A stretch of DNA of 64,000 bases from an uncultured Chloroflexia bacterium (GCA_963838085.1 CAWIPL010000015.1:176417-240416); one strand, 5' to 3'. Positions 2,283-48,828 are shown, counted from the first letter of the stretch. The notes: a model not told the origin generated them from the sequence alone. Made by a program: numbers and translations.

Positions 2283-3098
2283 TCACTCCCGTCCTACATC
2301 GCGCAGATCGAAAACCGGGCCGTCGCTACACAGCATGCGCGGGCCGCGCCGCGTCTCGACCATGCATACGCCGCATGCGCCCACACCGCAGACCAGCGGC
2401 CCTTCGAGCAGCACGCTGGCAAATCTGCGCTCCCAGCGGTACTTGACCGCACGGATCGCGTCGCGCAGTGCCGGTATCTGTTCATTTGGCAGTGCCGCGC
2501 AGATCTGGTCAGCCCATCGGATTGTAGATTGTAGATTGTAGATTGTAGATTGTGATGCTGGTTGATTACTCTGCAATCTGAAATCTGCAATGTGCAATCC
2601 GACAATGCTCTGGTACTCCACCTCGCCCGGCAGCAAAAACGGCGGCAGTAGCATGGCTTCATCGTCTGCGCCGACGACAAGCGTCACGGCACAGTTTTGA
2701 TTTGTGGCTTGCTGCGCCAGCAGTAAGAGTGCAGGTAGTCCTGCGCCCTGCCCGATAAGTAGCAGGTTGCGCGTGCGACGGTCCAGCGCGAAGCCATGAC
2801 CAAACGGCCCAATCGCATCCACCACATCGTCTGCATGACCGCGCGCCAGCCATGCCAGCCCGGGGTCGCCTTCTGGCGCATACAGCAGCCCGATCTGACC
2901 GAGCGTCTCTTCCGCTGCCGCAACGAATAAGGGCCGGCGCAGCAGCGGATCATAGCTGCCCGGCGGACCGCCGCGCACGAGCAGATATTGCCCGGCGCGA
3001 ATGCTGCGGGCCAGCGCCGGCGCGTGCAGCGTAAGCCATCGCAGTCGTGGCGTCACCGGGCGCTGATCAGCGATTGTGAGCAAATGTTGCTGGGCCAT
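2283..3098 (-). CDS. pyrK: PyrK-type FAD/NAD-binding oxidoreductase with C-terminal 2Fe-2S motif (dihydroorotate dehydrogenase electron-transfer subunit-like)
   Basis: Derived from ORF 2283..3242, with the start taken at MAQQHLL (3098). Motifs: RRPLFV, GQGAGLPALLLLA and C-terminal CGVGACGVCMV. It lies immediately downstream of pyrC. No pyrD is in the window. It contains the heptamer-repeat insert at 2519-2607. Confidence 0.7.
   Translation of the reverse strand: MAQQHLLTIADQRPVTPRLRWLTLHAPALARSIRAGQYLLVRGGPPGSYDPLLRRPLFVAAAEETLGQIGLLYAPEGDPGLAWLARGHADDVVDAIGPFGHGFALDRRTRNLLLIGQGAGLPALLLLAQQATNQNCAVTLVVGADDEAMLLPPFLLPGEVEYQSIVGLHIADFRLQSNQPASQSTIYNLQSTIRWADQICAALPNEQIPALRDAIRAVKYRWERRFASVLLEGPLVCGVGACGVCMVETRRGPRMLCSDGPVFDLRDVGRE
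2519..2607. repeat. heptamer-repeat hairpin element inside the pyrK-like CDS
   Basis: (GATTGTA)x4-5, a 15-nt spacer, then CTGCAAT-CTGAAAT-CTGCAAT-GTGCAAT-CCGACAAT. The arms are complementary if G:T pairs are allowed. Confidence 0.8.
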
Positions 3099-3177
3099 GT
3101 TCTTCCAGTCGGAATTATGCAGCAGCAGTATGCAGTCATTACTAGACGGGCAACTGGTGACTGGCGACTGCCGATTG

Positions 3178-4680
3178 CTATTCTTCCTCTTCGTCCAGAA
3201 TGCCTTCGAGCTTCGACGCTTGTTGCAACATACCGGTGGCAATGCCGAAGTTGCCGCGCCGAAAGACGATCTTTCCGCCGCACATTGTCAACATAACCTG
3301 TCCTTTGAGTTGCTGTCCGGCGACCGGCGTGTTTTTGCCTTTCGAGGCGAACTCGTCTGGCTTCACCGTCCACAGCTGGTCTGGATCGAAGATAACAATG
3401 TCGGCCGGCAAGCCGGGCCGCAGCGTGGCTGGCGTGCGCTCCAGAATGCTTGCTGGCCCCTCAGTTAGCTTGGCGAGCATGGTCACGAGGTCGAGTTCGC
3501 CGCGATGTACCAGCGTCATAACCAGACCAAGCGCCGTTTCCAGCCCGGAAATGCCAGGTGATGCGAGACCATATTCTACTTCTTTATCGACCCGGCTGTG
3601 CGGCGCATGGTCAGTTGCGATGATGTCAATTGTGCCGTCGCGTAGGCCCTCGATCAGCGCGTCCACATCTTCTTCGCCGCGCAGTGGCGGGCTGACGCGC
3701 GTGCTGGTGTCGTATGGCGGTAGCAGCGATGGATTCAACCAGCTCGGCAGGCCAAGTTCCGGCTCCATCTGCCGCCGTCTGCGTCCACGCCCGCTGCCAC
3801 CATCGCGGCGGCCTTTGCGCGGTGGCGGCTCCCATGGTTCCAGCGAGCCAAGCACCCAGCGGTCGGTCAATGTCAGATGGTGCGGCGATGCCTCGGCAGT
3901 CACGTGAACGCCGCGCTCCTTGGCGGCCCGAATTAGCGCCACGCCGCCGGCCGTGCTGACATGGCAAATGTGAATATGGCCGCCAGTTTGCTCTGCCAGC
4001 GTAATGTCGCGGGCGATTTGCACTTCTTCAGCCGCAGATGGGTAGCCCGGCAAGCCTAGCCGCGTGCTCACTGCGCCCTCGTGCATGGCCCAGCCATGGC
4101 TCAATGTCAGGTCTTCGCAATGGCTCATAATCGGTACTTCCAACATGGCCGAGTAGGCCAGCGCATTGCGCATGACTGCCGCGTCGCTGACCGGGCTGCC
4201 GTCATCACTGAAGCCGATGCAGCCGGCCTCGACCAGTTCAGCCATCTCGGTCAGCTGCGTGCCGGAGCGCCCGACCGTCACCGCGCCGATTGGCTCGACC
4301 CGCACCACGCCCTGCCGCCGGGCCGTCTCAATGACCTGGCGCACCACACCGGCCGCGTCGTAAGGTGGGCGCGTGTTGGGCATGGCGCAGATTGTGGTGA
4401 AGCCACCGTGTGCCGCCGCCTGCGTCGCCGTGGCAATCGTTTCCTTGTGCTCCTCGCCCGGTTCACGTACATGGACATGGATGTCAATAAATCCTGGCGC
4501 AATCACCGCGCCGCGAGCGTCAATCACCTCGACCTCGCCTTCTGGCAGGTTGATCTGTGTGTTCAGGTCGGCCATGTCGAAGACTTTAGTGACTTTGCCA
4601 TCCTCGACCAGAATGTTACCGACGGTTGCAACGCGCTGTGCCGGGTCGATAATCGAACCATTTTTGATTAAATAGCGCAT
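3178..4680 (-). CDS. pyrC: dihydroorotase
   Basis: Derived from ORF 3178..4878, with the start taken at MRYLIKNGSIIDP (4680). Motifs: DIHVHVREPG, ATDHAPH and a C-terminal amidohydrolase layout. It is about 500 aa because of an Arg-rich insert of about 43 aa. Confidence 0.9.
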   Translation of the reverse strand: MRYLIKNGSIIDPAQRVATVGNILVEDGKVTKVFDMADLNTQINLPEGEVEVIDARGAVIAPGFIDIHVHVREPGEEHKETIATATQAAAHGGFTTICAMPNTRPPYDAAGVVRQVIETARRQGVVRVEPIGAVTVGRSGTQLTEMAELVEAGCIGFSDDGSPVSDAAVMRNALAYSAMLEVPIMSHCEDLTLSHGWAMHEGAVSTRLGLPGYPSAAEEVQIARDITLAEQTGGHIHICHVSTAGGVALIRAAKERGVHVTAEASPHHLTLTDRWVLGSLEPWEPPPRKGRRDGGSGRGRRRRQMEPELGLPSWLNPSLLPPYDTSTRVSPPLRGEEDVDALIEGLRDGTIDIIATDHAPHSRVDKEVEYGLASPGISGLETALGLVMTLVHRGELDLVTMLAKLTEGPASILERTPATLRPGLPADIVIFDPDQLWTVKPDEFASKGKNTPVAGQQLKGQVMLTMCGGKIVFRRGNFGIATGMLQQASKLEGILDEEEE

Positions 4681-4699
4681 GATAGCTCCTAGAGAACGA

Positions 4700-4745
4700 C
4701 TATAGATGATGGACGATAGACGATGGAGTAAGAACCTAGAACCGA
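4700..4745. repeat. heptamer/14-mer tandem repeat in pyrC upstream spacer
   Basis: TAGATGA-TGGACGA-TAGACGA-TGGAGTA-AGAACCT…, directly abutting the REP-like hairpin. Confidence 0.6.
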
Positions 4746-4778
4746 GTTCATGGGCGAACCTCGTGTTCGTCCATGAAC
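4746..4778. repeat. REP-like palindrome GTTCATGGGCGAAC-CTCGT-GTTCGTCCATGAAC
   Basis: 14-bp stem (one G:T pair) with a 5-nt loop. The core GGGCGAACCT..TGTTCGYCC is shared with 44456-44480. Confidence 0.75.
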
Positions 4779-4796
4779 TGAGAACAAACAAGTTCC

Positions 4797-6272
4797 TCAG
4801 TGGCTTGCCTCTCCTGTGCGGCGCAATGACAGTAGCAACCCAATTAGCGCGCCGCAGGTCAACATAATAAAGCTCCATGAGATCAGCGTCGCGGCGGGCT
4901 GCCCAAAGCCGATCTGCGGGCGGTCGAGCGCAAAGCTGACAATTGGCACGTTGCCAAAATTAAGCTGTTGCAGATGCGCCACAAGCGGCGAGTAGGCTGG
5001 CTGGAATAGATAGATTGCGGCGCGGCTCAGATCATCGCCAGCAATCTGGTTGATGTACGTGTTGAAATCCACCAATATGCCAAGCGCATTTACGAATAGT
5101 GAGAGCGGCAGCAGCCCCAGTCCGATCACCAGCCGCCATGCCCGCTGACGAAGCAGCACGCCGAGCGGCAGCACCAGAAACGGCATGAGCGGCACGAGAA
5201 AGCGTGGCCCCCAATTGTGTCCGCCCCACCAGATCCACCATGTCGCGCTAGTCAGCAGCGTGATCAGTGTCAGCAAGCCGATGAACAATGCTTCTACTTT
5301 GAAGCGGCGCGCAAACGGCCACGCAGCAAACGGCAGCGCCAGCAGCAGTGGCACATATAAAAACAACGACTTGCCGGGACTCAGGAGCAGGCCATACAGC
5401 CCGTCCCACAGATTGCCGGTGAAGCCTTCGCCCGCGTAGCCATGGTCGGCAAGCGAGCGGAAGCGCACCCAATTATAGCCCAGCCACAACAGTGCGGCGG
5501 GTAAGGTGCCAAGGAGAAACCAAAGGGTAGGACAAAGGACAAAGGACGAAGGACGAAGAATCACAACCGCTTGTTCGTCGTTCGTCGTTCGTCGTTCGTC
5601 AGAGAATTTGAGCCACAAATACATCACAAACGCAGGTACCAGCGTCACGCCGACCGTACGCGTCAGTACAGCATAGCCGAACGCCAGCCCGGCCAGCAAC
5701 GGATGCTGCGCGTAGATGGCGTAGGCAGCAACAAGCAGGCACGCGCCGAACAACGGCTCGCTGAAGAAGAAGCGGCTGTATGGCCATGCCAGCGTGCCGA
5801 GGCCGAACAGCAGCGCCAGCGCCACGCCAATCCAAGCCGATTTGTACAGCCGCGTCGCCCACATGCACAGCACGCCGCCTGCAAGCGCCGTTGCCATGGC
5901 AGGCAGCAGCAGTGCCACGAACTGTCCAACATAAAATGCCCGCTCGGGCGCGGCCAGCCAGCGACCCAGTACGTAGCGCCCAAACCAATGCAGCGGCGCG
6001 GCCAGCAGCGGCTGGCCCAGGCCGTATTTCGAGAACAGTACACCGTCGGCGCGCCGCACGACCTGAGGGTACACTGCGGCGGCGGCGGGCAGCGTCACAG
6101 TGTGATTCTCTGCAATGCGCGTCGCCGTGATGCGCATGACCTCGCCGTCGCTGATGAATGGCTGCCCGCCCGTCGAGAGCAAGTACACGCCGAGCAGCAG
6201 CAGCGTCACCCAGAAGGCTGAAGATCGAGCGTGGAACAGAGAAAATAGTGGTGTACGCGACGCTTGTCGCAT
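4797..6272 (-). CDS. polytopic membrane protein, GT39/ArnT-like (phospholipid-carrier-dependent glycosyltransferase family)
   Basis: 491-aa ORF with more than 10 hydrophobic helices. The N-terminal loop (GGQPFISDGEVM…FSKYGLGQPLLAAP) is typical of GT-C enzymes. It sits between pyrB and pyrC with tiny spacers. It contains the heptamer insert at 5527-5601. Confidence 0.6.
   Translation of the reverse strand: MRQASRTPLFSLFHARSSAFWVTLLLLGVYLLSTGGQPFISDGEVMRITATRIAENHTVTLPAAAAVYPQVVRRADGVLFSKYGLGQPLLAAPLHWFGRYVLGRWLAAPERAFYVGQFVALLLPAMATALAGGVLCMWATRLYKSAWIGVALALLFGLGTLAWPYSRFFFSEPLFGACLLVAAYAIYAQHPLLAGLAFGYAVLTRTVGVTLVPAFVMYLWLKFSDERRTTNDEQAVVILRPSSFVLCPTLWFLLGTLPAALLWLGYNWVRFRSLADHGYAGEGFTGNLWDGLYGLLLSPGKSLFLYVPLLLALPFAAWPFARRFKVEALFIGLLTLITLLTSATWWIWWGGHNWGPRFLVPLMPFLVLPLGVLLRQRAWRLVIGLGLLPLSLFVNALGILVDFNTYINQIAGDDLSRAAIYLFQPAYSPLVAHLQQLNFGNVPIVSFALDRPQIGFGQPAATLISWSFIMLTCGALIGLLLSLRRTGEASH
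5527..5601. repeat. heptamer-repeat hairpin element inside the GT39-like CDS
   Basis: GGACAAA-GGACAAA-GGACGAA-GGACGAA, an 11-nt spacer, then CTTGTTC-GTCGTTC-GTCGTTC-GTCGTTC-GTC. Six of every 7 positions are complementary. Confidence 0.8.
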
Positions 6273-6275
6273 GAA

Positions 6276-7259: not shown

Positions 7260-7262
7260 TGA

Positions 7263-8021
<759 letters not shown>

Positions 8022-8029
8022 TCTTTTTT

Positions 8030-11899: not shown

Positions 11900-13468
11900 A
11901 TGGCAACCGTTGAACTTGTGATTGGACTGCTCTCCGCAGTGGCGGCGTTGGTACTGATTGCCGACCGGATTGCCGTGCCATATCCGGTACTCCTCGTTAT
12001 CGGTGGTCTCGTGCTTGGGTTCATTCCCGGGTTGCCCAGCGTCGCGATTAACCCAGACCTGATTTTCTTGCTCGTGTTGCCGCCGCTGCTGCAAAATGAG
12101 GCTTTTTTTACCTCGTTGCGCGATCTGCGCGCGAATCTGCGGCTGGTCGGCTCGCTTGCTGTTGGGCTGGTGCTTGTGACCGCTGCTGTGGTTGCTGTGG
12201 TTGTCCACGCGGTCATTCCCGGGTTGTCGTGGGCGGTGGCCTTTGTGTTCGGCGCAATTGTGTCGCCGCCCGATCCCGTGGCGTTCTCCGCTATTTCAGA
12301 TCGCATTAGCCTGCCGCAACGCTTGATTGTTGTGCTGAAAGACGAGGGCTTGATCAACGATGCCACCGCGCTGACGGCCTACCGTGTCGCAGTGGCGGCG
12401 GTGGTCGCCGGAACATTCTCGCTCTGGTCTACAGGCGCGCAGTTCGTTACGACGAGCGTGGGCGGTGTGCTAATTGGGCTGGCAATGGGATGGCTGGTGC
12501 AGCGGTTCATCAGCCATGTGGACAACACCGCCATCTCGATCACTATTGCATTGGCCGCTGCCTTCGCGACGTATCTCATTGCTGATATGGTGGGCGTATC
12601 GGGCGTGCTTGCCGTGGTCACGTCCGGTTTGTACCGTGGACGGCGCGAGTTTGTCCTGTCGGTGAACACGCGCTTGCAATCGCATGTCTTTTGGGAAGTG
12701 CTGGTCTTTTTGATTAACGGTGCGATGTTTGTGCTGATCGGCCTTCAGTTGTCGCGAGTCATGACAGGGCTGACTACGTCGTCCACGTTGCTGTGGTATG
12801 CAGTGATCGTTTCGCTTACCGTGATCGTGACGCGCTTCATCTGGGTGTTTATGGTGACGTACATACCGCACATGCTACGCCGTGGCACATCCGACGATGT
12901 GCCACCATGGCAGCAAACAACCATTATCGCGTGGGCGGGTATGCGCGGCATTATTTCGCTTGCTTCGGCACTGGGTCTGCCGCTCCTCGCCGCCAATGGA
13001 CAAGCGTTTCCTCATCGCAATCTTATTATTTTTCTGACGTTCTGCGTCATTCTTTCAACATTGGTTTTGCAAGGCTTGAGTTTGCCCCTCCTCATTCGCT
13101 GGCTTCATGTTGCCGGTGACGACGGCATGGAACGGGAAGAGGCTCAAGCACATCTTGCTGCCATTCATGCCGCCCAAACGCGCCTTGATGAACTTGCGGA
13201 TAAAGAATGGGTGCCGCAAGACTTGGTGGATCAGTTGCATACCTTCTATGACCGCCTTTCAGCTCGGTATGCAACTCAGACCAATGGCGATCATGATGAC
13301 GGCGTCATGGCCCGCGCCGAAGCAGCTACACGCCTGCGCCGCGAAGTTCTTTCTTCCAGCCGTGATGCATTGATTCAGTTGCGTGACGAAGGCGCGATTA
13401 ACGACGAGGTGTTGCGCCATGTCGAACGCGCGCTCGATCTGGAAGAGCGACAGCTCGATCTGCGATGA
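11900..13468 (+). CDS. Na+/H+ antiporter (CPA1/NhaP type)
   Basis: The ORF has about 12 TM helices, PDLIFLLVLPPLL, FGAIVSPPDPVA and a soluble C-terminal tail. The ATG at 11900 follows the TTG at 11897. Confidence 0.85.
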   Translation: MATVELVIGLLSAVAALVLIADRIAVPYPVLLVIGGLVLGFIPGLPSVAINPDLIFLLVLPPLLQNEAFFTSLRDLRANLRLVGSLAVGLVLVTAAVVAVVVHAVIPGLSWAVAFVFGAIVSPPDPVAFSAISDRISLPQRLIVVLKDEGLINDATALTAYRVAVAAVVAGTFSLWSTGAQFVTTSVGGVLIGLAMGWLVQRFISHVDNTAISITIALAAAFATYLIADMVGVSGVLAVVTSGLYRGRREFVLSVNTRLQSHVFWEVLVFLINGAMFVLIGLQLSRVMTGLTTSSTLLWYAVIVSLTVIVTRFIWVFMVTYIPHMLRRGTSDDVPPWQQTTIIAWAGMRGIISLASALGLPLLAANGQAFPHRNLIIFLTFCVILSTLVLQGLSLPLLIRWLHVAGDDGMEREEAQAHLAAIHAAQTRLDELADKEWVPQDLVDQLHTFYDRLSARYATQTNGDHDDGVMARAEAATRLRREVLSSSRDALIQLRDEGAINDEVLRHVERALDLEERQLDLR

Positions 13469-13558
13469 TGCAGGTACATGGCTTACTCCATCGCGCGCCG
13501 GCTGGCCTCACAGAATCGCTCGTCCATGATGGCGAAGCCGCGTTGACAATGTGAGAGA

Positions 13559-13595
13559 AAAAACAAACGCCAGCGCATTGCGCTGGCGTTTGTTG
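13559..13595. terminator. bidirectional hairpin terminator between convergent genes
   Basis: AACAAACGCCAGCGCA-TT-GCGCTGGCGTTTGTT forms a stem of about 15-16 bp. It is flanked by an A-run on the plus strand (a T-run for the minus-strand gene). Confidence 0.6.
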
Positions 13596-13611
13596 CGTAA
13601 GAAGAAGGGTT

Positions 13612-15242
13612 TTACGTGCGTGGGCGCAGGCCAGCATAGTAATGTGCGGCCCAGTAGCCGCCGCCGAGATTAGCGACACCAACGCCAAGACCGGGCGTGA
13701 GCGCCTGGACCACATTGCCGCCGCCGACGTAGATCCCACATGGCTGATGCCGCGCGTGTAGGTGTTGGCGAAGAAGACCAGGTCGCCAGGCTGTAGGTCA
13801 GCCGCGTTCGATACAATCGCGCCATAGGCGGTGTTGAACTGGCCGGCGGCGCTGTGCGGCATGTTCAGACCATACTGCCGGTACACATAGCGTGTGAAGC
13901 CACTGCAGTCAAATCCGCCCGGCCCTTCGCCGCCCCACGCATATGGATAGCCAACGAACTTCATGGCGAACCCGGTGGCGCTGCTGCCCGACGCCGACGG
14001 CGCTGGTGGTGGCGCTACCGCCGCTTTGGGTGCTGCGGCTTGTGGCTTCGTAGCTTGCGGTTGGGCTGCGGCTTGCGGCTTGGCCACCTGCCTTTGAGGC
14101 AAGGCCGGAATATCGCGGGTCGTGACAACACGGCGCGCAACAAAGTCGTCGACGTTGACCAACTCCATTGAGATCCAGCCAGTCGCGCCGTTCGATGCAC
14201 GCACCTTGTACCAATCGTCATAGCGTCCGAGCAGATCCAGCTGCGTGCCTGCGCCGAGCGAACCCAGCTTATCGTATGCGGTGTTCGGGCCGCCGCGCAG
14301 GTTCACGTTTGGCTGGCTAACGCTGCCGACCAGCTTGGGATTGGCATCCGGAATGCTCGTCACCGTTTCCACACGATCCAGCACGCCGGGCTGCAAATTG
14401 AGATGCTGGTCGAGTACCCATCCGATACGGCCATTGTCGGTCTGTACTTGCAGCCAGTCGCCGTAGCGCGCCAGCAGATCAAGCGTTGTACCTGCATTGA
14501 GCTTGCTCATGCCAATGAAGTTTGTGCCGGGGCCGTCACGCAGATTCAGATTATCCTCAGCGACCGTGCCAACCTTTGCAGGTGGCGGCGTGGGAATATC
14601 GGTTGCATCGGGCAGCAAATCTGCCGCAGCCTGATTCATCGCAAGAAGCTCAGCGGCGACCCAGACGATGCTGCCATCCTGCTGCTGGGCTTTGTACCAA
14701 TCATCATGGCGAGCGAGCAGTGTAAGTGGCGTGTTCTGCGCCAGCTTGGCAACCTCATCGTAGTTTGTACCCGGACCGGTACGAACCCTGCCAGCCTCCG
14801 CCACAATTGTGGCCGCGACTGGATGCACCTGAAGCTGGCGTGGGTCGAAGTGCGTTTGCGGCAGCGCGTCAATCTCCGCAAACGCTGAGTCAGGCACGGG
14901 TGCATCGGCATGCGCGTTCAGCGACAAGGGCGCGACCGGCATCATGAGGTCGTCTGGGCGGGTGTGTGCAGCGGGAATGGTGACAGGCGTCGCTGACCAT
15001 TGCTGCAACAACGGGCCGCCAACGGCGGCAAGTGGCACCAGCAACGCGACCAGCAGATGCAGCACCACGCGTGCTGGCATGTGTTTGCCGTGGTCGCGAA
15101 ACCATGTGCTATATTGGCTAGCAAAGGGTGTTTCAAGTGAAAGGGCGGCGAGGCGACTGCGGCGGTGCTGCTGGTGAAGCGTACGGGCATGGAGTGATGC
15201 CGCATCGAGCTTCGTAGCAGGATCGTGGAGACGATATGTCAC
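13612..15242 (-). pseudogene. secreted SH3b(x3)-NlpC/P60 peptidoglycan endopeptidase, frame-disrupted near 3' end
   Basis: ORF 13398..15242 carries three SH3b-like repeats, a PQAAA linker and the NlpC/P60 core (DCSGFTRYVYRQYGLNMPHSAAGQ…GDLVFFANTYTRGISHVG). The authentic end (IYVGGGNVVQALTPGLGVGVANLGGGYWAAHYYAGLRPRT*) is in another frame and stops at 13612-13614. The switch is at the CCC at about 13735-13737. A possible alternative start is at 15080 (MPARVV). Confidence 0.75.
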
Positions 15243-23367: not shown

Positions 23368-24483
23368 GAGAAGTTGTAAACTGTGCTACACTTGGCATCG
23401 AACTGATGATCAGATTTGAACCAAGGGTATGAGGAGCACAGCGATGAGCGTGGTACCGGCGGATCTGCAAGCCTTTCTGGATGAGCATCGGGACTCACGC
23501 GAGTATCGGCGGGGCGTGGCGGTCAAGCTGGCACTCCAAGGCTATCTGTACGCAACGATCTGCGCGATGTTGGATGTAAGTCCAGGGTTCATTAGCCAGG
23601 CGAAAATAGCCTATGAGACCGCTGGCGTCGATGGGCTACGACTTAAGTATCAGGGCGGGCAACCCTTTCTGACCGATGAACAACGACAGGCGGTCATTAC
23701 CTGGCTCAAAATCCAGCAGACCTGGTCGGTTGAGCTGCTCCGCTCGCATATTGAGACCACCTATGCGGTGGTATACCAGTCCAAGCAAAGCTATTACGAA
23801 CTCTTGGCCGAAGCCGGTATCACATACAAACGCTCGCAAGCGCGCAATCCAAAGCACGATCCCGAACAAGTTGTTGCGAAAAAAAAGCCATCCGAGCGCT
23901 CGTGATGCCCCTAGCAGCACAAATTGCCGCCAAGGAGGTAGTTGTCCTGTATATCGATGAATGTCACCTCAGTGCTGGCGACGCGTGTGGATATGTTTGG
24001 GGCCCAAGCCATCAGCGCATGTCGGTTCCGATCCTCAATCAACGCGACCGCCAAACCTACTATGGTGCTATCGATGCCTATACGGGTGAGTTGATCGTCG
24101 TCCCGCTCCAAGCCGGCACTACTGAATGGACACGGATCTTTGTTGAGTATTTGCGTGAGCAATTTACAGGGAAACGGCTGATCCTCTGTTGGGATGGAGC
24201 CTCCTACCATCGTAGCACCGAGATGCGAGAGTATCTCGAAGCCGTCAATCTTGGTCATGCGCACGACGATTGGCCGATCACCTGCATCCAATTTGCGCCC
24301 TATGCGCCAGAACAGAACCCAATCGAGGACGTCTGGTTACAAGCAAAAGACTACGTTCGGAAGCGCTGGCATCGCTGTAAGGATCACTTTCAGAGCATTA
24401 CTGACCTGTTCGAAGAAGCACTTAATACAATCGTCTTTGACTTTGAGAAGCTTCGTATGTATCTGCCAGATTTACAAATCGCG
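23368..24483 (+). mobile_element. IS630-family insertion sequence (about 1.1 kb) with TA target duplication
   Basis: Imperfect terminal inverted repeats: GAGAAGTTGTAAACTGTGC on the left, and GCCAGATTTACAAATCGCG on the right (reverse complement CGCGATTTGTAAATCTGGC). Each is flanked by TA (23366-67 and 24484-85). A two-frame DDE transposase lies inside. Confidence 0.8.
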
Positions 24484-24486
24484 TAG
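23444..24486 (+). CDS. IS630 family transposase (orfA 23444-23905 plus orfB to 24486, joined by -1 slippage on A8)
   Basis: orfA has HTH and winged-helix features. orfB has DDE features (LYIDECH…CWDGASYH…APYAPEQNPIEDVW). The orfB frame is open upstream through the AAAAAAAA run at 23879-23886 (…AKKK/KAIRALVMPLAAQ…). Confidence 0.8.
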
Positions 24487-31646: not shown

Positions 31647-32285
31647 ATGCCGCAGTCATTTATCGAATCACTTCTGTCTACCTTGTTTCCAGAGCGCTGC
31701 GTAGGTTGCGCTCGATTGGGCGCACTATTCTGTGAAACCTGCCGGGCGGCGCTACGCCCGTACCACTTGCAGCGCCAGCTCCAGCAACCAGAGCTTAATG
31801 GCATTGACATCGGCTTTGTGTTCGAGGGGCCGCTGCGCGAAGCCATTCATCAATTCAAATATCAACGCCGTCGTCGCATGGCAAAACCGCTCGGCGCGCT
31901 GTTGGCAGCGCATGTCTCGCCCAGCTTTGCTGCCAACGCAACCATTGTGCCGGTGCCGCTCCATGCCACACGGCAGCGTGAGCGCGGCTTTAATCAGGCT
32001 GAGGTGCTGGCAAGAGAAGTGGCACGAGCGCTCATGCTGCCGCTTCTACGCGAAGGACTGGTCCGGCAGCGTGCTACCGAGCAGCAGGCGCACCTTGATG
32101 CGCGTCGGAGGCATGAGAATGTGAGCGGCGCGTTTGTATGGCAGAGCACAGCGGCGCCGCCGGAACGTGTATTGTTGCTAGACGATGTGATCACAACTGG
32201 CGCGACAATCAGTGCCTGTGCGGCGGCACTGCGTCGTGCAGGCACGCGTGAAGTGTACGCGCTCGCGTTGGCGCGCAGCCGATAA
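31647..32285 (+). CDS. ComF family protein (phosphoribosyltransferase domain)
   Basis: N-terminal Cys pairs (CVGC…CETC) and the PRT motif VLLLDDVITTGAT. Confidence 0.8.
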   Translation: MPQSFIESLLSTLFPERCVGCARLGALFCETCRAALRPYHLQRQLQQPELNGIDIGFVFEGPLREAIHQFKYQRRRRMAKPLGALLAAHVSPSFAANATIVPVPLHATRQRERGFNQAEVLAREVARALMLPLLREGLVRQRATEQQAHLDARRRHENVSGAFVWQSTAAPPERVLLLDDVITTGATISACAAALRRAGTREVYALALARSR

Positions 32286-32361
32286 AAAAGAAGAAGTAAG
32301 AAAGAAGAAGTAAGAAGTTAGTCGTTCACTCCTCTTACTTCTTCTTTCTCCTTCTTACTTC
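32285..32361. repeat. long purine/pyrimidine heptamer-repeat hairpin between convergent genes (probable bidirectional terminator)
   Basis: AAGAAGA-AGTAAGA-AAGAAGA-AGTAAGA-AG, a spacer of about 15 nt, then TCTTACTTCTTCTTTCTCCTTCTTACTTC. The arms are about 29 nt and nearly complementary. Confidence 0.7.
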
Positions 32362-32365: not shown

Positions 32366-33961
32366 TTACCAGCTCCGCTTCTGCCCCGGCCCAACTGTAC
32401 CGAAGATATGCGGCGGCAGCTTGAAGCCGTGCGCTTCCAGGCGCGAGCTAAAGCGCGGGCGCGTGCCGGTCGGGCGCAACTCCGTGATGAGTTTTCCTTC
32501 TGGCGTCTTGCCCTTGATGTCGAGGACAAAAATGTCTTGCAACACGATCACGTCGCCTTCCATGCCTTGCACTTCACTAATGTAGGCTACCTTGCGCTGG
32601 CCATCCTCCAGACGGGTCTGCTGCACAATCAGGTCAACAGCTGACGCAATCTGCTCGCGAATGACCTTGAGCGGCATGTCCATGCCCGCCATCATCGCCA
32701 TTGTTTCCATACGGGAGCAAGCGTCGCGCGGCGTGTTGGCGTGGAGCGTTGTAAGCGAGCCATCGTGGCCAGTGTTCATGGCCTGGAGCATGGCCATGGT
32801 TTCGCCGCCGCGACACTCACCGATGACAATGCGCTCCGGGCGCATACGCAACGAGTTGATCACCAGGTCGTTGATCGACACGCGCCCGGTGCCATCTACC
32901 TCGGCAGGCTTGGCCTCCAGCCGTACCACATGATCTTGTCCCAGCTTGAGTTCGGCGCTATCCTCAATCGTGACGATGCGATCATCTTCAGGAATAAAAT
33001 TCGACAGCACATTCAGCAGCGTAGTTTTACCGGAGCCTGTGCCGCCCGACACGACGATGTTGAGGCGGCTGACCACGCACGCCCGCAGAAATTCTCCCAT
33101 TTCAGACGTTACCGAGCCAAACCGAATCAAATCCTCGATCTGCAGTTTATTCTTCCCAAACTTACGAATGGTAATCGACGGCCCATCGATTGCGCATGGT
33201 GGAATAATGGCGTTCACACGCGATCCGTCAGGCAGACGCGCGTCTACCATCGGCCACTTGCGGTCTACGCGGCGACCAAGCGGGCGAATAATGCGGTCGA
33301 TGACCTTCAGCACATGGTCGTCATTGGCGAACTTCACCGGGCTCAAGGTCACTTTGCCGCCCTGCTCGATGTAGACCGCGTCTGGGCCGTTGACCATGAC
33401 TTCAGAAATACTATCGGTACGCAAGAGCGATTCAATCGGTCCAAAGCCGAGCAATTCGTCGGTGACCATTTCGTACAACTGGCGCACCTGTGCCTCACTC
33501 AGGTTGACGCCCGCCTGACGGTAGTAGTTTGTGAAGCGCTCCTGAATCAGGCGCTCCGACTCGGGCGAACGCTTTAGTTCCGTCTGGTTGCTCAGCGATC
33601 CTTGAATGCGGTCCACAATCCAAAGCGATAATTCAAGCATCCGCTTCATGGTGACGCTGCCATCGCCACTCACACTTGCGGCAACGCTGCGTTGCTCTGC
33701 AGCGGCAGTCTGCTGAACGGCTTCGGGCGGGAGCGGCGGCGCGGCAGCGGGCACGGCACTGCTCACGGGTGCTATGTGTGGCACCGGCATGGGTGGCATG
33801 GAGCTACTCTGCGGTGGCACAGAACTGCTCATGGGTGGTGCCGTACGCGGCGCTGGCGTGGCTGGTTGCGGCGCTGGCACTGCAACTGATACAGTACTTG
33901 TCGCAGATGGCGAGCTTTCGCCTGGCTGTGATGGATTACCGAGACGTTTCAAAAGCGACAT
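32366..33961 (-). CDS. CpaF/TadA-type secretion ATPase (type II/IV secretion NTPase family)
   Basis: Walker A VVSGGTGSGKTTLLN, then IVTIEDSAELKL, GHDGSLTTLHAN, and a Pro/Ser-rich N-terminal tail. Confidence 0.85.
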   Translation of the reverse strand: MSLLKRLGNPSQPGESSPSATSTVSVAVPAPQPATPAPRTAPPMSSSVPPQSSSMPPMPVPHIAPVSSAVPAAAPPLPPEAVQQTAAAEQRSVAASVSGDGSVTMKRMLELSLWIVDRIQGSLSNQTELKRSPESERLIQERFTNYYRQAGVNLSEAQVRQLYEMVTDELLGFGPIESLLRTDSISEVMVNGPDAVYIEQGGKVTLSPVKFANDDHVLKVIDRIIRPLGRRVDRKWPMVDARLPDGSRVNAIIPPCAIDGPSITIRKFGKNKLQIEDLIRFGSVTSEMGEFLRACVVSRLNIVVSGGTGSGKTTLLNVLSNFIPEDDRIVTIEDSAELKLGQDHVVRLEAKPAEVDGTGRVSINDLVINSLRMRPERIVIGECRGGETMAMLQAMNTGHDGSLTTLHANTPRDACSRMETMAMMAGMDMPLKVIREQIASAVDLIVQQTRLEDGQRKVAYISEVQGMEGDVIVLQDIFVLDIKGKTPEGKLITELRPTGTRPRFSSRLEAHGFKLPPHIFGTVGPGQKRSW

Positions 33962-37730: not shown

Positions 37731-39113
37731 CAGGCCAGTTCTCCCTCTGCCACGAGGTCGCTTTGGAGTGACCATGGGCTCGTGTGCGTGACGCGGACAC
37801 GGGCAAGCCGTCCGGTCCAATCGCGGTCGTCACTGAAGAAGACGAGCTTGTTGCCGGGCGTGCGACCGCGCCACTTGCCCTTGCTTTCGCCCTCAACCAA
37901 CACTTCCACAATGTGGCCAAGCAGTTGTGCGTTGCGTTCGGTCGCGATGCCTTCTTGGATGCGTTCAAGCTCGACGCGGCGGGCCTGTTTTTCGCCCTCT
38001 GGCACGGCCAGCGCAGGGTCTTCTTCCATTGCACCAGCGCGCGTGCCTGGCCGCCATGAGTAGGCTGCAATATGCACTTTGTCGAAGCGTATCTCCTCGA
38101 TCAGCGCTTTGGTGCCTTCAAAGTGTTCGCGCGTCTCACCCGGGTGGCCGACAATAATGTCGGTGACCATGGCAACGTGCGGGATGGCTGACCGAATGCG
38201 CCCCACCAGGTCGCGGTAGCGCTGCACGGTGTAGCCGCGCCGCATGACCTTGAGCATGGTGTCGTGCCCGGCCTGCACCGGAAGGTTGATTTCCGGCATG
38301 ACGCGCGGCAATTCAGCAATGGTCGCAATCAGCTTGTCGGTCATCCATGCCGGATGCGACGTCAGGAATCGCATCCGAACCAGGCCTGGCACCTCGTGTA
38401 CGGCACGCAGCAACTCGGCAAGATTAGGCCGTCCCGGCAGATCGTGGCCCCATGAGCTCGACAATCTGGCCCAGCAGCGTAATCTCTTTCGCGCCGCGAG
38501 CGACGATGCGCTGCACTTCGTCCACAATTTCTTCCAACGGGCGGCTGCGCTCGCGGCCACGCCGCTGGGGAATCACGCAAAAGGCACAATTCATGTTACA
38601 GCCGTACTGGATTGGCACATGCACCGACACCGGTGGATGCGTCCAGTTGGCGACTGGCAGCGCAGGCTCGTCGAGCTGATAGATGGAGTTGGGTGCGAGG
38701 GCCAGCACCTCATCCACTGCCGAGGGCGACACGAAATGATCGACCACCGGCAGGCGCTGCTTGAAGATCGACTGGTTGTTCGGGCCGACCATGCAGCCCC
38801 ATAGCACCACCGTGGTGTCTGGCAATTCGCGCTTCACACGCTGCAACTCGCCCAGCTTGCCGATGATGCGCTCTTCCGCCGAGGCCCGCACGCTGCATGA
38901 ATTCAGCACAATGAAGCTGGCCTCTTCAGGCCGGTCAGCCGGCGCATAGCCGACGCCTTGCAGCGCCGCCTCAAGCCGATCTGAATCGGAGATATTCATC
39001 TGGCAGCCGACCGTCCAGACATAATAGCGCCGGTCGCGCGGTGTAGTGTCACGCGAGGGGCGCGGAATCAGCGGCTGGGCTGCATCTTGTGTGAGTAAAA
39101 TAAGATTTTCCAT
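37730..39113 (-). pseudogene. miaB: tRNA (i6A37) methylthiotransferase MiaB, frame-disrupted as sequenced
   Basis: The N-terminal ORF 38424..39113 has the UPF0004 domain and the radical-SAM motif CNMNCAFC. The C-terminal ORF 37730..38560 has the rest of the radical-SAM fold and the TRAM domain. They join as …[12 protein letters not shown] / [16 protein letters not shown]… at about 38450-38460. Confidence 0.85.
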
Positions 39114-39977: not shown

Positions 39978-40045
39978 AGAAGATAGAAGGATCACAGCGA
40001 CAGTGCCATAATTTATCTTCTATCCTCAATCCTCTATCTTTATCC
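39978..40045. repeat. heptamer-repeat hairpin in divergent intergenic spacer
   Basis: AGAAGATAGAAGGAT, a spacer of about 22 nt, then ATCTTCT-ATCCTCA-ATCCTCT-ATCTTTA-TCC. Confidence 0.65.
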
Positions 40046-41418: not shown

Positions 41419-41445
41419 TCATCCGGTGTGAGAATTGCAGATTCA

Positions 41446-41474
41446 AAAAGGGACGAGAACATCTCGTCCCTTTT
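41446..41474. terminator. hairpin terminator between convergent genes
   Basis: AAAGGGACGAGA-ACAT-CTCGTCCCTTT forms a stem of about 11-12 bp, flanked by an A-run on one side and a T-rich stretch on the other. Confidence 0.65.
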
Positions 41475-41502
41475 GTCATTTCGCCGCCTGTGCATTCGCA
41501 TG

Positions 41503-42270
41503 TCACACAACGGCCTGAGCTGCGAGCGCCAGTGTGCAGAGTTCGATATCGCTGGTCATGGCGGCTTCATCAGCGGCGTGGAGTGTGCTATCGTCCAGAT
41601 AGCTGGCAACCGTAGGGCGCAGCCTCTGCCATGGCAACAGCGAAAGCTCGGCCTGCGCAAGGTTTGGCATGTCGAGCAGAAAGGCGCGAATGTGCGGCGC
41701 GGCGAAGCCTGCGGCAGTGAACTGCGCGGCGAGTTCGTCGCCAACATCTGGTGCAGAAGCCAACAGCGCGCCCGCTGCCTGCGCTTTCATGCGAGCGGCA
41801 TGAAGCTGCGCGGCCAGCGCGGGCGGCCAGCGCGTGATCTCGGCCCATGCCTGCGTGCCGCTGACGACCAGCACCTGGCCGCCAGGCTGCACAACTCTGC
41901 GGAGTTCTCGCAATGCCATCACCGGATTGCCAAACAAGCCGAGCGCCGCAATGCAGCATGCCGCCGCGATGCAATTGTCAACGAGTGGCAGGGCGTGGGC
42001 GTTGGCAGTGAGCAGGTGAACGGGCGAGCAGGTGAATAGGCGATGTGCTGCTGCTGTGCAATCTGTAATCTGCCATCTGCAATCTGCAATTGCTGAGTAG
42101 TCGTGGTCGAGCGCGAGCAGACTGACATGCGGGCCGCATGCCTCGCGCAGGAGCGGCAGCTTGAGGCCGGAGCCGCTGGCGAGATCGAGAACGATGCCAT
42201 TACGGGGCAGTCCGGCGGCGGCAAGCATGTGTCGCAGAATGGGAATGAGTGGCTCGTGTAAAATATCCAT
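41503..42270 (-). CDS. class I SAM-dependent methyltransferase
   Basis: VLDLASGSGLKL (motif I), …LPLVD…, VVQPGGQVLVVSG. It contains the heptamer array at 42056-42095 and an adjacent 16-nt tandem duplication. Confidence 0.75.
   Translation of the reverse strand: MDILHEPLIPILRHMLAAAGLPRNGIVLDLASGSGLKLPLLREACGPHVSLLALDHDYSAIADCRWQITDCTAAAHRLFTCSPVHLLTANAHALPLVDNCIAAACCIAALGLFGNPVMALRELRRVVQPGGQVLVVSGTQAWAEITRWPPALAAQLHAARMKAQAAGALLASAPDVGDELAAQFTAAGFAAPHIRAFLLDMPNLAQAELSLLPWQRLRPTVASYLDDSTLHAADEAAMTSDIELCTLALAAQAVV
42056..42095. repeat. heptamer tandem array inside the methyltransferase CDS
   Basis: GTGCAAT-CTGTAAT-CTGCCAT-CTGCAAT-CTGCAAT-TGCTG. This is the same CTGCAAT unit as the right arm of the pyrK element. 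Confidence 0.75.
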
Positions 42271-44411: not shown

Positions 44412-44455
44412 ACAAGATACATCATATCACATAGTGAGAATCACAGAACCATTGT

Positions 44456-44480
44456 AGGGGCGAACCTATGTGTTCGCCCT
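44456..44480. repeat. REP-like palindrome GGGGCGAAC-CTATGT-GTTCGCCC
   Basis: Stem of 8-9 bp in the 81-bp spacer between two minus-strand genes. It has the same core as the 4746-4778 hairpin. Confidence 0.7.
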
Positions 44481-44492
44481 TGAGAGCGCCCA

Positions 44493-45644: not shown

Positions 45645-45698
45645 GAGCGGCCTCCTTTATGCGTGGCGGCATGTCAATAGGAATCGTTGAGCAACGAA

Positions 45699-46124: not shown

Positions 46125-46203
46125 GGCACCATTACAGAATCAAAACTATGATCGAATTTATACGTGCCATTATACATGACTTTTTTAATCAAGAAAATAA
46201 AGT

Positions 46204-47106
46204 TTACCCCCGTTTCCAGATCAATGCGCCGTCCTCAAGTATAATTTGCGCCATGCCTTGTGTTGTCAGATAGCTGAGATGCGCTGAGACCGCCGATGTA
46301 AATACGGCGTGTTGGGAGATTCCTGCAAAAACAAGGCCAAGCGTTTGTGCCACGCGCCGACCGATAGTTGAAAGGTCGCCCGGCTCATGGAGCGCGGCCT
46401 GCACCGCCGCCGTCGAGCGCTCGATGGCAGCTACATTAGCATGCAGCACATCAGCCAATTGCTCGCGCATCGTCAAATCGCCATGACCGGGCACGAAGAA
46501 GCGTTCCTCGCGCTCAGCCAGCGTCTGGAGGCTACGGAGCTGCCCGGTAACGTCTTGCGCGTAGGGAATGCCGTGCTTCTGGAGCACCGCCGCGCCAAAG
46601 AAGCCATCGGCGGCGAAGCACACACCGTCATATATCACGCCAATCTGATTGAGGCTGTGGCCCGCGAGCGACACAACATTGAGCATGGTGTCACCGATTT
46701 CTAGCTGCGCGCCCTCGATGATGTGGTGAACTGGACTTGGTTTTGCCATGACCCACTTGTTTTGCAGCGCCTTATATGGTGCGGCACCCATGTTGAGGTA
46801 CAGCGGCTCCAATTCGGGATGCTCGATCAGCGCGGCCTCAAGCGGCGGCGCATAGACTTCCACCCCCGGCATGTTGCGCACCAGGTAGTCATTGCCGCCA
46901 ATGTGGTCGGCATGGTGATGCGTGTTGATGATCGCGCGCAGGTGCAGCCTGGCCTCGTCGAGCGCCTTGCGAATGAGCCGCCCGGTATCTTTGTCGATGC
47001 CAGTGTCAATCGCAATCGCGCCGCCATCATTGGTGACGATGATGCCCAGATTATTCGCGCCGGGAAGATAAAAGGCGCGCTCAGTGATTGATTGCAGTAA
47101 TGACAT
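46204..47106 (-). CDS. MBL-fold metallo-hydrolase
   Basis: Motif THHHADHIGG, with later His/Asp ligands. Confidence 0.85.
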   Translation of the reverse strand: MSLLQSITERAFYLPGANNLGIIVTNDGGAIAIDTGIDKDTGRLIRKALDEARLHLRAIINTHHHADHIGGNDYLVRNMPGVEVYAPPLEAALIEHPELEPLYLNMGAAPYKALQNKWVMAKPSPVHHIIEGAQLEIGDTMLNVVSLAGHSLNQIGVIYDGVCFAADGFFGAAVLQKHGIPYAQDVTGQLRSLQTLAEREERFFVPGHGDLTMREQLADVLHANVAAIERSTAAVQAALHEPGDLSTIGRRVAQTLGLVFAGISQHAVFTSAVSAHLSYLTTQGMAQIILEDGALIWKRG

Positions 47107-47117
47107 AACGATGTAAC

Positions 47118-47197
47118 CGCCGATAAATGTAGATGAACGCCGATAAGGAGAAATATACCTACTATTATCGGCGAGTATCCGCGTGTATCTGCGGGCG
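47118..47197. repeat. repeat/hairpin element in intergenic spacer
   Basis: CGCCGATAA occurs twice (20 nt apart, 47118 and 47138) and its complement TTATCGGCG once, followed by GTATCCGCG-TGTATCTGCG. Confidence 0.6.
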
Positions 47198-47204
47198 CTA
47201 AAAG

Positions 47205-47951
47205 TTAGCTTTCACCGCGTACATCTGGATTGCTCGACGTGGTGGCCGGATCGATACGCACCTTGGGATCGGTGGGGTGGGCTGGCTCGGTGTTGGCGAC
47301 TCCGGTTGAGCCGGATGGGTCAATCGGCATTGGTGCGGAGCCGGAGCCGGTGCCAGCTGATTGGTCAAGCAAATCTTGGAGCAGGTCTTTGTCGGACGGC
47401 GCGCCGCTTGCGTTCTGCGCACGCCCTTCTCCTGCCGTACCTGTGGCGAGCGACGGATCGATTGGCGCGGGGCCAGCACCAGTGTTAGCAGTCGTTTCAG
47501 CTAAACTGGCATGCGGGGCGGCACACCACTGATCGAGTCCGACGCGCACGATCCACAGCGCCACGAGCGCGCCAATCGCGGCCGGGTTGATAAACGATGC
47601 GCCGATGCCGAGCGCCGTCAGAACATACGGCACGAGCGACTTGACCTGATCGGCTAGCGCGAGTCCGCCAATCGTGCCGCGATATTCGTCCTTCAAGCGG
47701 CCCTTTTCTGGATCGCAGATTTCCTTGTGGATCGCATCGGCGTAGAAGGCGATGAAGCGCTGCGCCGCCGAGCCGCCCGCTGCTTCGCCGCCGAGCCATG
47801 GATGGGCGTCGCCTGCTCCAAGCACAGCGGCATGACCCGAGGTCTGTTGCTTGAGTTCGGCATCGAGGCGCTCCAGAATCTGGGCTTCGCTGGCATGCTC
47901 AAGCCCTTCGCCAAGTACCTGGTCAACAGTCTGGTCGATGTCGTTCGGCAT
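47205..47951 (-). CDS. hypothetical protein (one central hydrophobic segment, low-complexity C-terminus)
   Basis: 248-aa ORF in the codon-consistent frame. No motif recognised. Confidence 0.45.
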   Translation of the reverse strand: MPNDIDQTVDQVLGEGLEHASEAQILERLDAELKQQTSGHAAVLGAGDAHPWLGGEAAGGSAAQRFIAFYADAIHKEICDPEKGRLKDEYRGTIGGLALADQVKSLVPYVLTALGIGASFINPAAIGALVALWIVRVGLDQWCAAPHASLAETTANTGAGPAPIDPSLATGTAGEGRAQNASGAPSDKDLLQDLLDQSAGTGSGSAPMPIDPSGSTGVANTEPAHPTDPKVRIDPATTSSNPDVRGES

Positions 47952-48022
47952 AGTTCGCTCTCCTTGAAAATTGCTGCTGATGGAGATTTTACAGGGATAA
48001 TGGCACGATTATAGCACGAGCG

Positions 48023-48370
48023 TCAATGCGAGTAATCGAGGAACAAGCGCGGCATTTCTTCCCATGCTATCTGTTCCACATGGTCTGCTAGCAGCGCACG
48101 CAAGACGGCAATGTAGTCGCGGATGGCAGCGATGGGAAGCCCGGCATGCTCATCGGGGAGCGGCGCAAGCAGCCGCGCCGCACTGGCAAGGTTATGGCGC
48201 GGTCCACTTGTTAACCCGAGGCGTAGCTGGTTCAGTGCGTTGCAGAGTTGGATCATGGCGCGAAGTACATCGCTGCGCTCGGTATGCCACTGCTGTTCGA
48301 AAAGCAGCAAGGCATCGCGATACTCTTCCGCGTTGAAGTGGGCCATGGCGGCAGCAATGTAATTTGACAT
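48023..48370 (-). CDS. DUF309-like protein
   Basis: ATG at 48370. FNAEEYRDALLLFEQQWH…AMIQLCNALNQLRLG matches the DUF309 helical pattern. Confidence 0.55.
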   Translation of the reverse strand: MSNYIAAAMAHFNAEEYRDALLLFEQQWHTERSDVLRAMIQLCNALNQLRLGLTSGPRHNLASAARLLAPLPDEHAGLPIAAIRDYIAVLRALLADHVEQIAWEEMPRLFLDYSH

Positions 48371-48401
48371 AAAATCTTGTAAAGGCAGCGGGCAATAATG
48401 T

Positions 48402-48761
48402 TTATGGTCTTTCGTCAATCGAGCGCTCTCGCTCCTCGGTCTTCTCGCGCATGGCATCCCGGAACTTATTGTGCTGCTGCAGTTCTTCGCCGCTGCGCCA
48501 TGCCAGCACAAGTGATGCAAGCGCGCCGAGGAACAGCGCCGCCGTGACCGCCATCAGCGCCCACGCGAGCGGTCCGATGCCCATGCCCGCTGCCAACGCG
48601 ATGTTATAGCCCGTCAGCAGCAGCACTGCGCCTGCCGCAAGCATGAATGCGCGGCGGCGGTGGGGCTGCGTGGACGCCCGGCGGGCCTGCGCCCATAGTA
48701 ACCCAGCGATGACCATGCCGATGATAATTCTAATAATGTCACTCATGTATTTTTCTGACAT
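48402..48761 (-). CDS. small membrane protein (3 TM)
   Basis: 119-aa ORF with three hydrophobic helices and a charged tail. Confidence 0.5.
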   Translation of the reverse strand: MSEKYMSDIIRIIIGMVIAGLLWAQARRASTQPHRRRAFMLAAGAVLLLTGYNIALAAGMGIGPLAWALMAVTAALFLGALASLVLAWRSGEELQQHNKFRDAMREKTEERERSIDERP

Positions 48762-48764
48762 GAT

Positions 48765-48828
48765 GATACGATGACAAGATGAGGCAAAAGCCAGCAGATT
48801 ATCCTGTCATCGTGTCACCTTGTCATCG
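48765..48828. repeat. heptamer-repeat hairpin between metG stop and next gene start
   Basis: GATGATA-CGATGAC-AAGATGA-GG, a spacer of about 20 nt, then CCTGTCA-TCGTGTC-ACCTTGT-CATCGTG. The ACGATGACAAG/CTTGTCATCGT stem is 11 bp. Confidence 0.65.

Follow-up and report, generated by a model that had tools for sequence, protein, structure and literature searches.

A stretch of 64,000 nucleotides from an uncultured Chloroflexia bacterium (GCA_963838085.1 CAWIPL010000015.1:176417-240416), in the following called the window, carries short head-to-tail arrays of mostly seven-nucleotide units, some of which face an array of inverted units across a short spacer. This raises the question of whether such loci form one class of repeat, by which processes they arise and change, and whether they serve the host. 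A sequence-only reading of the window had described nine of them (E1 to E9) as one hairpin architecture with a fixed period of 7 and with a unit that differs at each locus, from which it took that no single sequence had been copied around. Our analysis tentatively suggests a lineage-typical population of dispersed repeat families akin to the short tandemly repeated repetitive (STRR) sequences of cyanobacteria. Such a population would be largely selfish or neutral, turn over fast and persist where it is tolerated.

The nearest matches of the window's PyrC are a Roseiflexaceae metagenome-assembled genome (MAG; 80% identity) and Kouleothrix (77–79%), which characterizes the window as Roseiflexaceae/Kouleothrix-like and agrees with the Chloroflexota-like origin proposed before. 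The best genome match is 80% and the closest metagenome match of metG 78%, and look-ups with PyrB and PyrK found no relatives that are more than 90% identical. Comparisons were made with related loci from Roseiflexaceae, Kouleothrix and Chloroflexaceae (385 kb) and with outgroup loci (1.59 Mb).

Period and pairing of the arrays

A match/mismatch scan of the window returned six strong arrays at period 7 and none at any of the periods 4–6 and 8–12, and 20 dinucleotide-preserving shuffles of the window yielded about zero strong arrays. The related loci hold 30 period-7 arrays versus 4 at period 6 and 11 at period 8; in the outgroup loci 15 period-7 arrays were found. The preference for period 7 over periods 6 and 8, on which the sequence-only reading had made its claim depend, is hence present both in the window and in its relatives, and an artefact of chance or composition is ruled out by the shuffles and by the comparison between periods. 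Tandem Repeats Finder (TRF) located period-7 arrays at E1 to E5 and at E7, as well as two arrays (X1 and X2) that had not been listed before (Table 1). Membership of X2 in the repeat class is uncertain. X1 displays no significant fold, its inverted GACTG partners being only weak.

A fixed period does not hold for the whole set. Three or more head-to-tail copies of a 7-nt unit are found at E1 to E7 and not at E8 (~10 nt) or E9 (8 nt), yet both of the latter share the tandem-armed architecture. RNA folds were compared with those of shuffled sequences. E1 reaches −47 kcal/mol on the plus strand (z −8.1) and −26 on the minus strand (z −4.9), E3 ~−30 (z ~−4), E5 −37.9 (z −6.6), E8 −34.5 (z −5.1) and E9 ~−28 (z −5.3); z values of these strong hairpins range from −3.9 to −8.1, and DNA folding reproduces their structures. 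Of the single architecture proposed for nine loci, five strong tandem-armed hairpins remain, three of them (E1, E3 and E5) at period 7. On the other hand, the E2 array is unpaired and no hairpin arm, with a separate hairpin beside it; E4 and E7 are solitary, without an inverted partner and with folds of z −1.2 to +1.4; and the fold of E6 is marginal (z −2.0 to −2.8). Of 41 strong arrays, about 15 have an inverted partner, and the remainder (~60%) are solitary. A strand-specific RNA structure formed through G-U pairing was considered and dropped: E1 of the window does fold far better in antisense, but in the relatives L081 and L088 neither strand is consistently favoured. No Rfam family matches any of the elements, the only Rfam match in the window being the PyrR leader at 7898–8025, and PyrR attenuators at E1 to E3 are ruled out by the lack of a match there.

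Elements are found in intergenic DNA and also, in frame, inside genes, as had been noted. After curation of gene starts, 6 of 11 arrays (E2, E5, E6, E8, E9 and X1) are intergenic, although intergenic sequence makes up only ~9–12% of the DNA (P ~8e-4). Homologues align on either side of the insert in each of the four open reading frames (ORFs) for which in-frame copies had been claimed.

Table 1. Repeat features of the window, with positions counted from its first letter
Feature	Position	Strand	Organization	TRF arrays	Context	Evidence
E1	2519–2607		(GATTGTA)x4.9, 16-nt spacer, (TCTGCAA-like)x4.3	2520–2553 (4.9 copies, 100%); 2570–2599	in frame in pyrK (2283–3098, minus); peptide ..GLHIADFRLQ..QSTIYNLQSTI	TRF, folds, PyrK alignment, DNA alignment with L081 and L088, codon test
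X1	3145–3178		(CAGTCNN)x4 on gene strand	3145–3174	pyrC-pyrK spacer, overlapping pyrC stop codon	TRF
E2	4698–4745		(GACGATR)x4 and (AGAACCK)x2, direct arrays	4698–4724	spacer between membrane-protein stop (4797) and pyrC start (4680); E2 and hairpin together 4698–4779	TRF, fold
Hairpin beside E2	4745–4779		15-bp hairpin; stem bears one GACGAAC-type unit		same spacer	
E3	5527–5601		(GGACRAA)x4.3, 14-nt spacer, (GTTCGTC)x4; one stem mismatch per unit	5529–5558; 5573–5600 (4.0 copies, 100%)	in frame in membrane protein (4797–6272, minus); peptide SDERRTTNDEQ..LRPSSFVLCPT	TRF, fold
X2	14034–14082		degenerate period 7 (TGCGGCT, 73% match, 17% indels)	14034–14082	linker of SH3/NlpC-P60 protein	TRF, Pfam, translation
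E4	26663–26694	+	solitary (GACGACC)x4.6	26663–26694	in frame in APH-family kinase (26079–27011); peptide TTDDRRPTTD directly after DFCPVNAL	TRF, fold
E5	32283–32361		(AAGAAGT/AAGAAAG) array, spacer, (ACTTCTT/CTTTCTT) array	32287–32318; 32333–32361	whole spacer of two convergent genes, 31647–32285 (+) and 32366–33961 (−)	TRF, RNA and DNA folds
E6	39978–40045		weak (AGAAGAT/GATAGAG-type) inverted arrays		divergent intergenic region	fold; conserved with L150
Repeat beside E7	42010–42043		16-nt TCACC-type repeat			
E7	42056–42095	−	solitary (ATTGCAG)x5 on gene strand	42057–42090	in frame in S-adenosylmethionine methyltransferase (41503–42270)	TRF
E8	47117–47194		hairpin; arms of ~3 tandem units of ~10 nt (CGCCGATAAA-like)	47166–47193 (period 10)	between same-strand genes 47205–47951 and 46204–47106, both minus	TRF, fold
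E9	48756–48831		period-8 hairpin: (TGACAAGA-like)x3.4, spacer, (TGTCAYCN)x3.4	48756–48782; 48805–48831 (period 8)	immediately downstream of metG (48831–50618, minus)	TRF, fold

Unit families and turnover in related genomes

The view that each locus has a unit of its own and that nothing is copied around proves misleading, as the same families recur in different genes and in related genomes. The units belong to a few recurrent families, namely GATTGCA, GACGAAC/GACGACC, TGACAAGG/GTCACC, GATAGAG and others. The unit of E7 is identical to the arm unit of E1. The relative L154 has the arms of E3, (GACGAAC)4 and (CTTCGTC)n, in its APH gene, with the same one-base mismatch per unit and a different loop. 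GACGACC, the unit of E4, returns as TTDDRRP peptides in a PyrK (P0084), in a methyltransferase (P0123) and in many APH orthologues, and the octamer type of E9 (TGACAAGG / CCTTGTCA, with GTCACC variants) builds the type B alleles of pyrK described below as well as the methyltransferase insert of L150. GATAGAG-type units, as in E6, recur in L081. In an all-against-all BLAST of 113 elements, non-orthologous copies share only 20–32 nt of array; common loops or flanks at non-orthologous loci are absent from this comparison, which rules out copy-and-paste of whole elements.

The best-documented case is the element within pyrK. In DNA of type A alleles (GATTGCA arms, as in the window) from three lineages with ~70% identical PyrK proteins, the arms are nearly invariant and the loop cannot be aligned. 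Among codons for invariant amino acids, 13 of 14 are themselves invariant in the arms versus 50 of 150 in the remainder of pyrK (Fisher p=1.7e-5), and rare codons are used in the element. Since codons are conserved beyond residues, the constraint on the arms acts on nucleotides, either through pairing of the stem or through recognition of the sequence, rather than on the encoded peptide; the inserted segment is modelled with low confidence (pLDDT ~48–54). Conservation of the same peptide in orthologues of distant taxa had been named as the observation that would speak against an insertion. For E1 this holds in part: many orthologues of 65–85% identity share the peptide, more distant ones lack it, and its conservation is at the nucleotide and not the protein level. 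Hence, E1 is an old insertion allele and not ancestral protein.

Type A and the heterogeneous type B are interleaved on a tree of the flanks, and one pair is 97% identical outside the element. The ancestral G..TDLL motif is kept in type B PyrK and missing from type A, and for this reason a switch between types would require allelic replacement, not drift. The final right-arm unit of type B runs into ancestral coding sequence. Three type A proteins (P0035, P0063 and P0073) carry a second insert (PST...LR.G) nested within the right arm.

A second hot spot is the APH loop after DFCPVNAL. Among 111 orthologues, 65 carry heptad peptides there, stemming from at least six recognizable unit families; inserts that were not assigned to a family are present in 27, and the other 19 have no insert. 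At the DNA level the element of L154 reads (GACGAAC)4, loop, (TCGTCCT)3.6, and that of L155 (L155:96-1091, P0191) reads (GGGGACT)6, loop, (CGTCACC)5, with non-complementary arms. The family agrees in 71% of pairs with at least 90% flank identity and in ~10–13% of pairs below 70%; occupancy of this loop follows phylogeny only loosely. The methyltransferase site of E7 behaves like the APH loop in that orthologues carry other families there.

Changes among related strains are recorded most directly by L085 and L088, which are ~97% identical over 1.5 kb. One hairpin arm differs between them by exactly one 7-nt unit, which is the whole-unit copy change expected of slippage in close relatives. In addition, L088 has a clean 81-nt insertion in which a small GC hairpin separates (GACGATG)4 from (TCACCTTG)4; L085 and L002 show the empty site, which contains no precursor. 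The entire pyrK element is replaced between the two, including both arms and the loop. In the spacer arrays of L156, which is a closer relative, the seeds GGTTCT (of E2) and CAGTC (of X1) are kept and their expansions differ. Related loci thereby record gain and loss of whole units, different expansions of a shared seed, insertion of a block and replacement of an element.

Explanations of the repeats

The explanation we favour, while giving it somewhat less than an even chance, is the STRR-like population of dispersed families. The units, mostly 7 nt long and sometimes 8 or ~10, come from a small set of recurrent families, and roughly 40% of the arrays have an inverted partner array, with which they fold into long hairpins whose stems are mismatched at regular intervals. 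The changes would arise from slippage of the strand, from template switching, be it from arm to arm or from array to array, and from allelic recombination. Purifying selection would confine the elements to gene-end and intercistronic spacers and to permissive surface loops, in which stop-free arrays would simply be translated as heptad peptides. A minority would be kept by selection on the stem itself, with the type A arms of pyrK as the clearest case.

Several points weigh against this explanation. Neutral turnover alone explains neither the recurrence of the same few units nor the ~90% identity of pyrK arms amid ~70% identical PyrK proteins, and the case for copying between loci comes from shared arms, as matches between non-orthologous copies stop short of loops and flanks. 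The 81-nt insertion has no donor copy, no target-site duplication and no conserved terminus, and its loop has no second copy in the fetched loci. The lineage trait is patchy, given that the metG relatives L089–L102, which were expected to carry elements and are of similar distance, have almost no arrays. The related sample consists of loci totalling only ~0.4 Mb. Furthermore, exact copy numbers hinge on assembly quality, as conserved genes of the window show frameshifts; arrays nevertheless recur across many independent assemblies despite possible indel errors in the window assembly.

Two alternatives concern the mode of spread. Non-autonomous mobile elements comparable to REPINs, miniature inverted-repeat transposable elements (MITEs) or small dispersed repeats (SDRs) might carry tandem arms that are recognized by a trans-acting enzyme (a REP-associated tyrosine transposase (RAYT)/Y1 transposase, or another nuclease or polymerase), so that pre-formed hairpin elements would be inserted preferentially into existing hairpins or permissive sites. 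We consider this doubtful, though a serious candidate. The recent clean 81-nt insertion speaks for it, as do arms that are conserved while the loops are free, which REPINs also show, the occurrence of one arm family, with an identical mismatch in each unit, in different genes (E3 of the window and the APH gene of L154), the different families at the same site in close relatives, and the nested-looking inserts in three PyrK proteins. However, non-orthologous copies have neither a target-site duplication nor conserved termini nor a common loop, and arms differ in length by whole units. A scan of 50 of the window's 59 long ORFs found no Y1/RAYT transposase or reverse transcriptase, which is a weak argument given how little of the genome 64 kb represents; the only transposase found is of the IS630 type.

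At the opposite extreme, each locus may have arisen in place, as the sequence-only reading held: a local hairpin or direct repeat would have grown by slippage, its arms would have co-expanded by template switching, and nothing would move. This appears improbable to us. It would account for unit-wise indels, for orthologous arrays that share a local seed and expand differently, for the single unit of the neighbouring array in the hairpin stem at E2, for the merging of the last right-arm unit into ancestral coding sequence in type B pyrK, and for the CACCTG motif, close to the E9 unit, within the terminator stems found downstream of metG in relatives. Evidence against it is provided by identical units, and even an identical arm asymmetry, in unrelated genes and genomes, by the empty site of the 81-nt insertion without precursor, and by replacement of both arms and loop within ~3% divergence.

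Other explanations assign the repeats a function. The hairpins may primarily be terminators, intercistronic mRNA stabilizers or attenuators, or protein-binding arrays under selection, the repeats being a means of building stems. Enrichment at gene ends is consistent with such roles, as is the run of six U after the E5 hairpin on the minus strand. At the position of E9, relatives have a classical terminator hairpin with a T-tract, and the pyrC-pyrK spacer holds a tandem-armed hairpin in L001, L081, L085 and L088, with differing sequences; conservation of the pyrK arms and of E6 at the nucleotide level points in the same direction. Conversely, most hairpins lack a U-tract (none follows the stem of E8 or E9), in-frame copies within genes cannot be terminators, the majority of arrays is solitary, the content turns over rapidly with empty sites in relatives, and no Rfam family matches any element. 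A canonical bidirectional intrinsic terminator at 41445–41474 (AAAAGGGACGAGA..TCTCGTCCCTTTTT), which lies between the convergent methyltransferase and Fer4/CCG genes and is conserved in L150, indicates that the genome also uses ordinary terminators. As a general explanation, function of the hairpins is about as improbable as growth in place, while some gene-end copies probably do act as terminator-like or mRNA-end hairpins. Least probable by far is selection of the in-gene segments as protein repeats, for example as flexible or charged linkers, with the DNA periodicity as a by-product. In its favour, the peptides are hydrophilic and located in loops, and many PyrK orthologues conserve them; yet codons are conserved beyond residues with use of rare codons, the 7-nt unit runs through all three reading frames, the same units also turn up between genes, one and the same loop can hold unrelated peptides, and the model confidence of the segment is low.

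A bolder formulation is possible, although we regard it as less likely than not: an undescribed class of tiny mobile elements with tandem heptamer or octamer arms might repeatedly invade and overwrite the same gene-end spacers and, in conserved proteins, the same permissive loops in Kouleothrix/Roseiflexaceae, generated or moved by a sequence-specific mechanism that the heptamer repeats of filamentous cyanobacteria and of Beggiatoaceae may have in common with them.

Surrounding genes and known repeat systems

E1 to E3 are housed in a minus-strand pyr operon with the order PyrR leader, pyrR, pyrB, membrane protein, pyrC and pyrK. The leader (7898–8025, minus; Rfam RF00515, 54 bits, which is exactly the gathering score) lies upstream of pyrR (7263–7901) and represents the classical pyr attenuation leader. 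The protein between pyrB and pyrC (4797–6272, minus) is a multi-pass membrane protein of 491 aa without a Pfam match; it is confined to the window and the Kouleothrix-like loci L002, L085 and L156, and pyrB directly adjoins pyrC in other relatives. PyrC is ~70 residues longer than typical dihydroorotases and contains an Arg/Gly-rich segment at residues 284–310 (3751–3831, minus; EPPPRKGRRDGGSGRGRRRRQMEPELG), which may be an old, decayed repeat insertion.

Some neighbouring genes appear disrupted. The GNAT acetyltransferase at 1693–2541 (plus), convergent with pyrK, looks frameshifted around 2136–2249: its relative in L156 (148 aa) matches frame 1 of the window up to 2139 and then frame 3 at 2136–2246. 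The long ORF that results crosses the 3′ end of pyrK in antisense orientation and terminates at a TAG within the E1 array. A MiaB-like radical-SAM gene at 37733–39113 (minus) is split into two frames near 38448–38488, either as a pseudogene or by an indel error of the assembly; its relative in L150 combines UPF0004, Radical_SAM and TRAM domains in 460 aa and is 89–95% identical. Taken together, these two frameshifts suggest an error-prone assembly. In the SH3/NlpC-P60 ORF (minus), within 13398–13900, translation past GISHVG looks out of frame, which may be another frameshift, and the 3′ part of this ORF contains a perfect 16-bp palindrome at 13562–13594. The IS630-type transposase (23429–24486, plus) consists of two overlapping ORFs, HTH_33/HTH_32 followed by DDE_3, and adjoins a low-GC stretch (24–28 kb, GC 0.49). 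In L154, the APH gene is preceded instead by an N6_N4 methylase and a GmrSD_N gene, and the APH/IS630 neighbourhood is thus rearranged.

Period-7 or period-8 arrays also recur within single contigs of unrelated outgroups, namely L064, L074 (Planctomycetes) and L130/L132/L143/L147, and the phenomenon is therefore wider than Chloroflexota. Heptanucleotide simple sequence repeats are generally over-represented in bacteria, according to Mrazek (2007) as cited in PMC4692102 and PMC4679880. Known since 2007, this over-representation is met here in a phylum new to it and in a form that is unusually informative, with hairpin pairing, a small vocabulary of families and translation at hot spots of conserved proteins. 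Public protein sequences record thousands of independent events of gain, loss and replacement, by which the question of origin (slippage, templated copying or an enzyme) becomes testable. In practical terms, stop-free arrays extend ORFs upstream and thereby inflate ORF calls, and the elements create hypervariable protein loops and are likely sites of assembly and alignment errors in Chloroflexota MAGs.

The open-access literature searched holds no description of heptamer repeats in Chloroflexota/Chloroflexi. The sequence-only reading aptly named STRR repeats and in-frame palindromic elements as precedents. Rickettsia palindromic elements (RPEs) are ~100–150 bp long, have a family consensus over their whole length, and their arms are not made of tandem short units. 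The elements described here resemble them in that palindromic repeat DNA is tolerated in frame in surface-exposed segments of conserved protein genes (pyrK, the membrane protein, APH and the methyltransferase); a consensus of RPE length is not found, as only the short stretch of array is shared between non-orthologous copies. Assignment to MITEs is likewise not supported, the 81-nt insertion having neither a target-site duplication nor defined termini. Repetitive extragenic palindromic (REP) sequences and REPINs appear similar with respect to dispersed hairpins, conserved inverted arms with a less conserved spacer, abundance at gene ends and populations within a genome (PMC3116915, PMC3333891). 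Their arms, however, are single imperfect palindromes of 20–40 nt with a conserved GTAG-type motif and are tied to RAYTs (PMC3116915, PMC3333891), in contrast to the tandem 7–8-nt units of variable number described here, of which the present sample is too small for copy counts, and no RAYT occurs among the window ORFs scanned.

The TAACTGA repeats of marine Beggiatoaceae, cyanobacteria and Bacteroidetes are likewise heptamer direct repeats of 2–6 copies in filamentous bacteria, mostly intergenic near gene starts, with few copies in ORFs in the stop-free orientation, and of unknown origin (PMC4679880). That system is distinguished by a single unit, one reported inverted pair and a proposed role in translational regulation (PMC4679880). 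Closer in arrangement are the GGGAATC repeats of Xanthomonas, which form intergenic heptamer arrays of ~4 units, variable and between the same gene pairs in related species, including some inverted pairs able to form stem-loops (PMC4692102). Unlike these, which have one dominant G-rich, quadruplex-capable unit, the elements of the window and its relatives comprise many families, mostly not G-quadruplex formers, and include in-frame coding copies that are not described for GGGAATC (PMC4692102).

The closest likeness is to the STRR or heptamer repeats known in filamentous cyanobacteria (Calothrix, Nostoc/Anabaena), for example GGGGA(C/T)T (PMC4692102). Common to both are 7-nt units, short arrays, several families per genome, a mostly intergenic location, and length and sequence that vary between relatives; the nested inserts of P0035, P0063 and P0073 resemble the nested small repeats described in cyanobacterial heptamer arrays. 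The APH allele of L155 even carries (GGGGACT)x6, the unit reported for the G-rich heptamer repeats of Nostoc PCC 7120, which, given the ~45 unit classes seen, could be a coincidence or could reflect a unit vocabulary shared across phyla. In the strict sense of STRR1–3 from heterocystous cyanobacteria the elements do not qualify, as the host is Roseiflexaceae/Kouleothrix-like and the window units differ. They further depart from cyanobacterial STRR in that a large fraction is paired as inverted hairpin arrays, in that periods of 8 and ~10 occur too, and in that recurrent hot spots of conserved proteins contain many copies as translated, in-frame segments.

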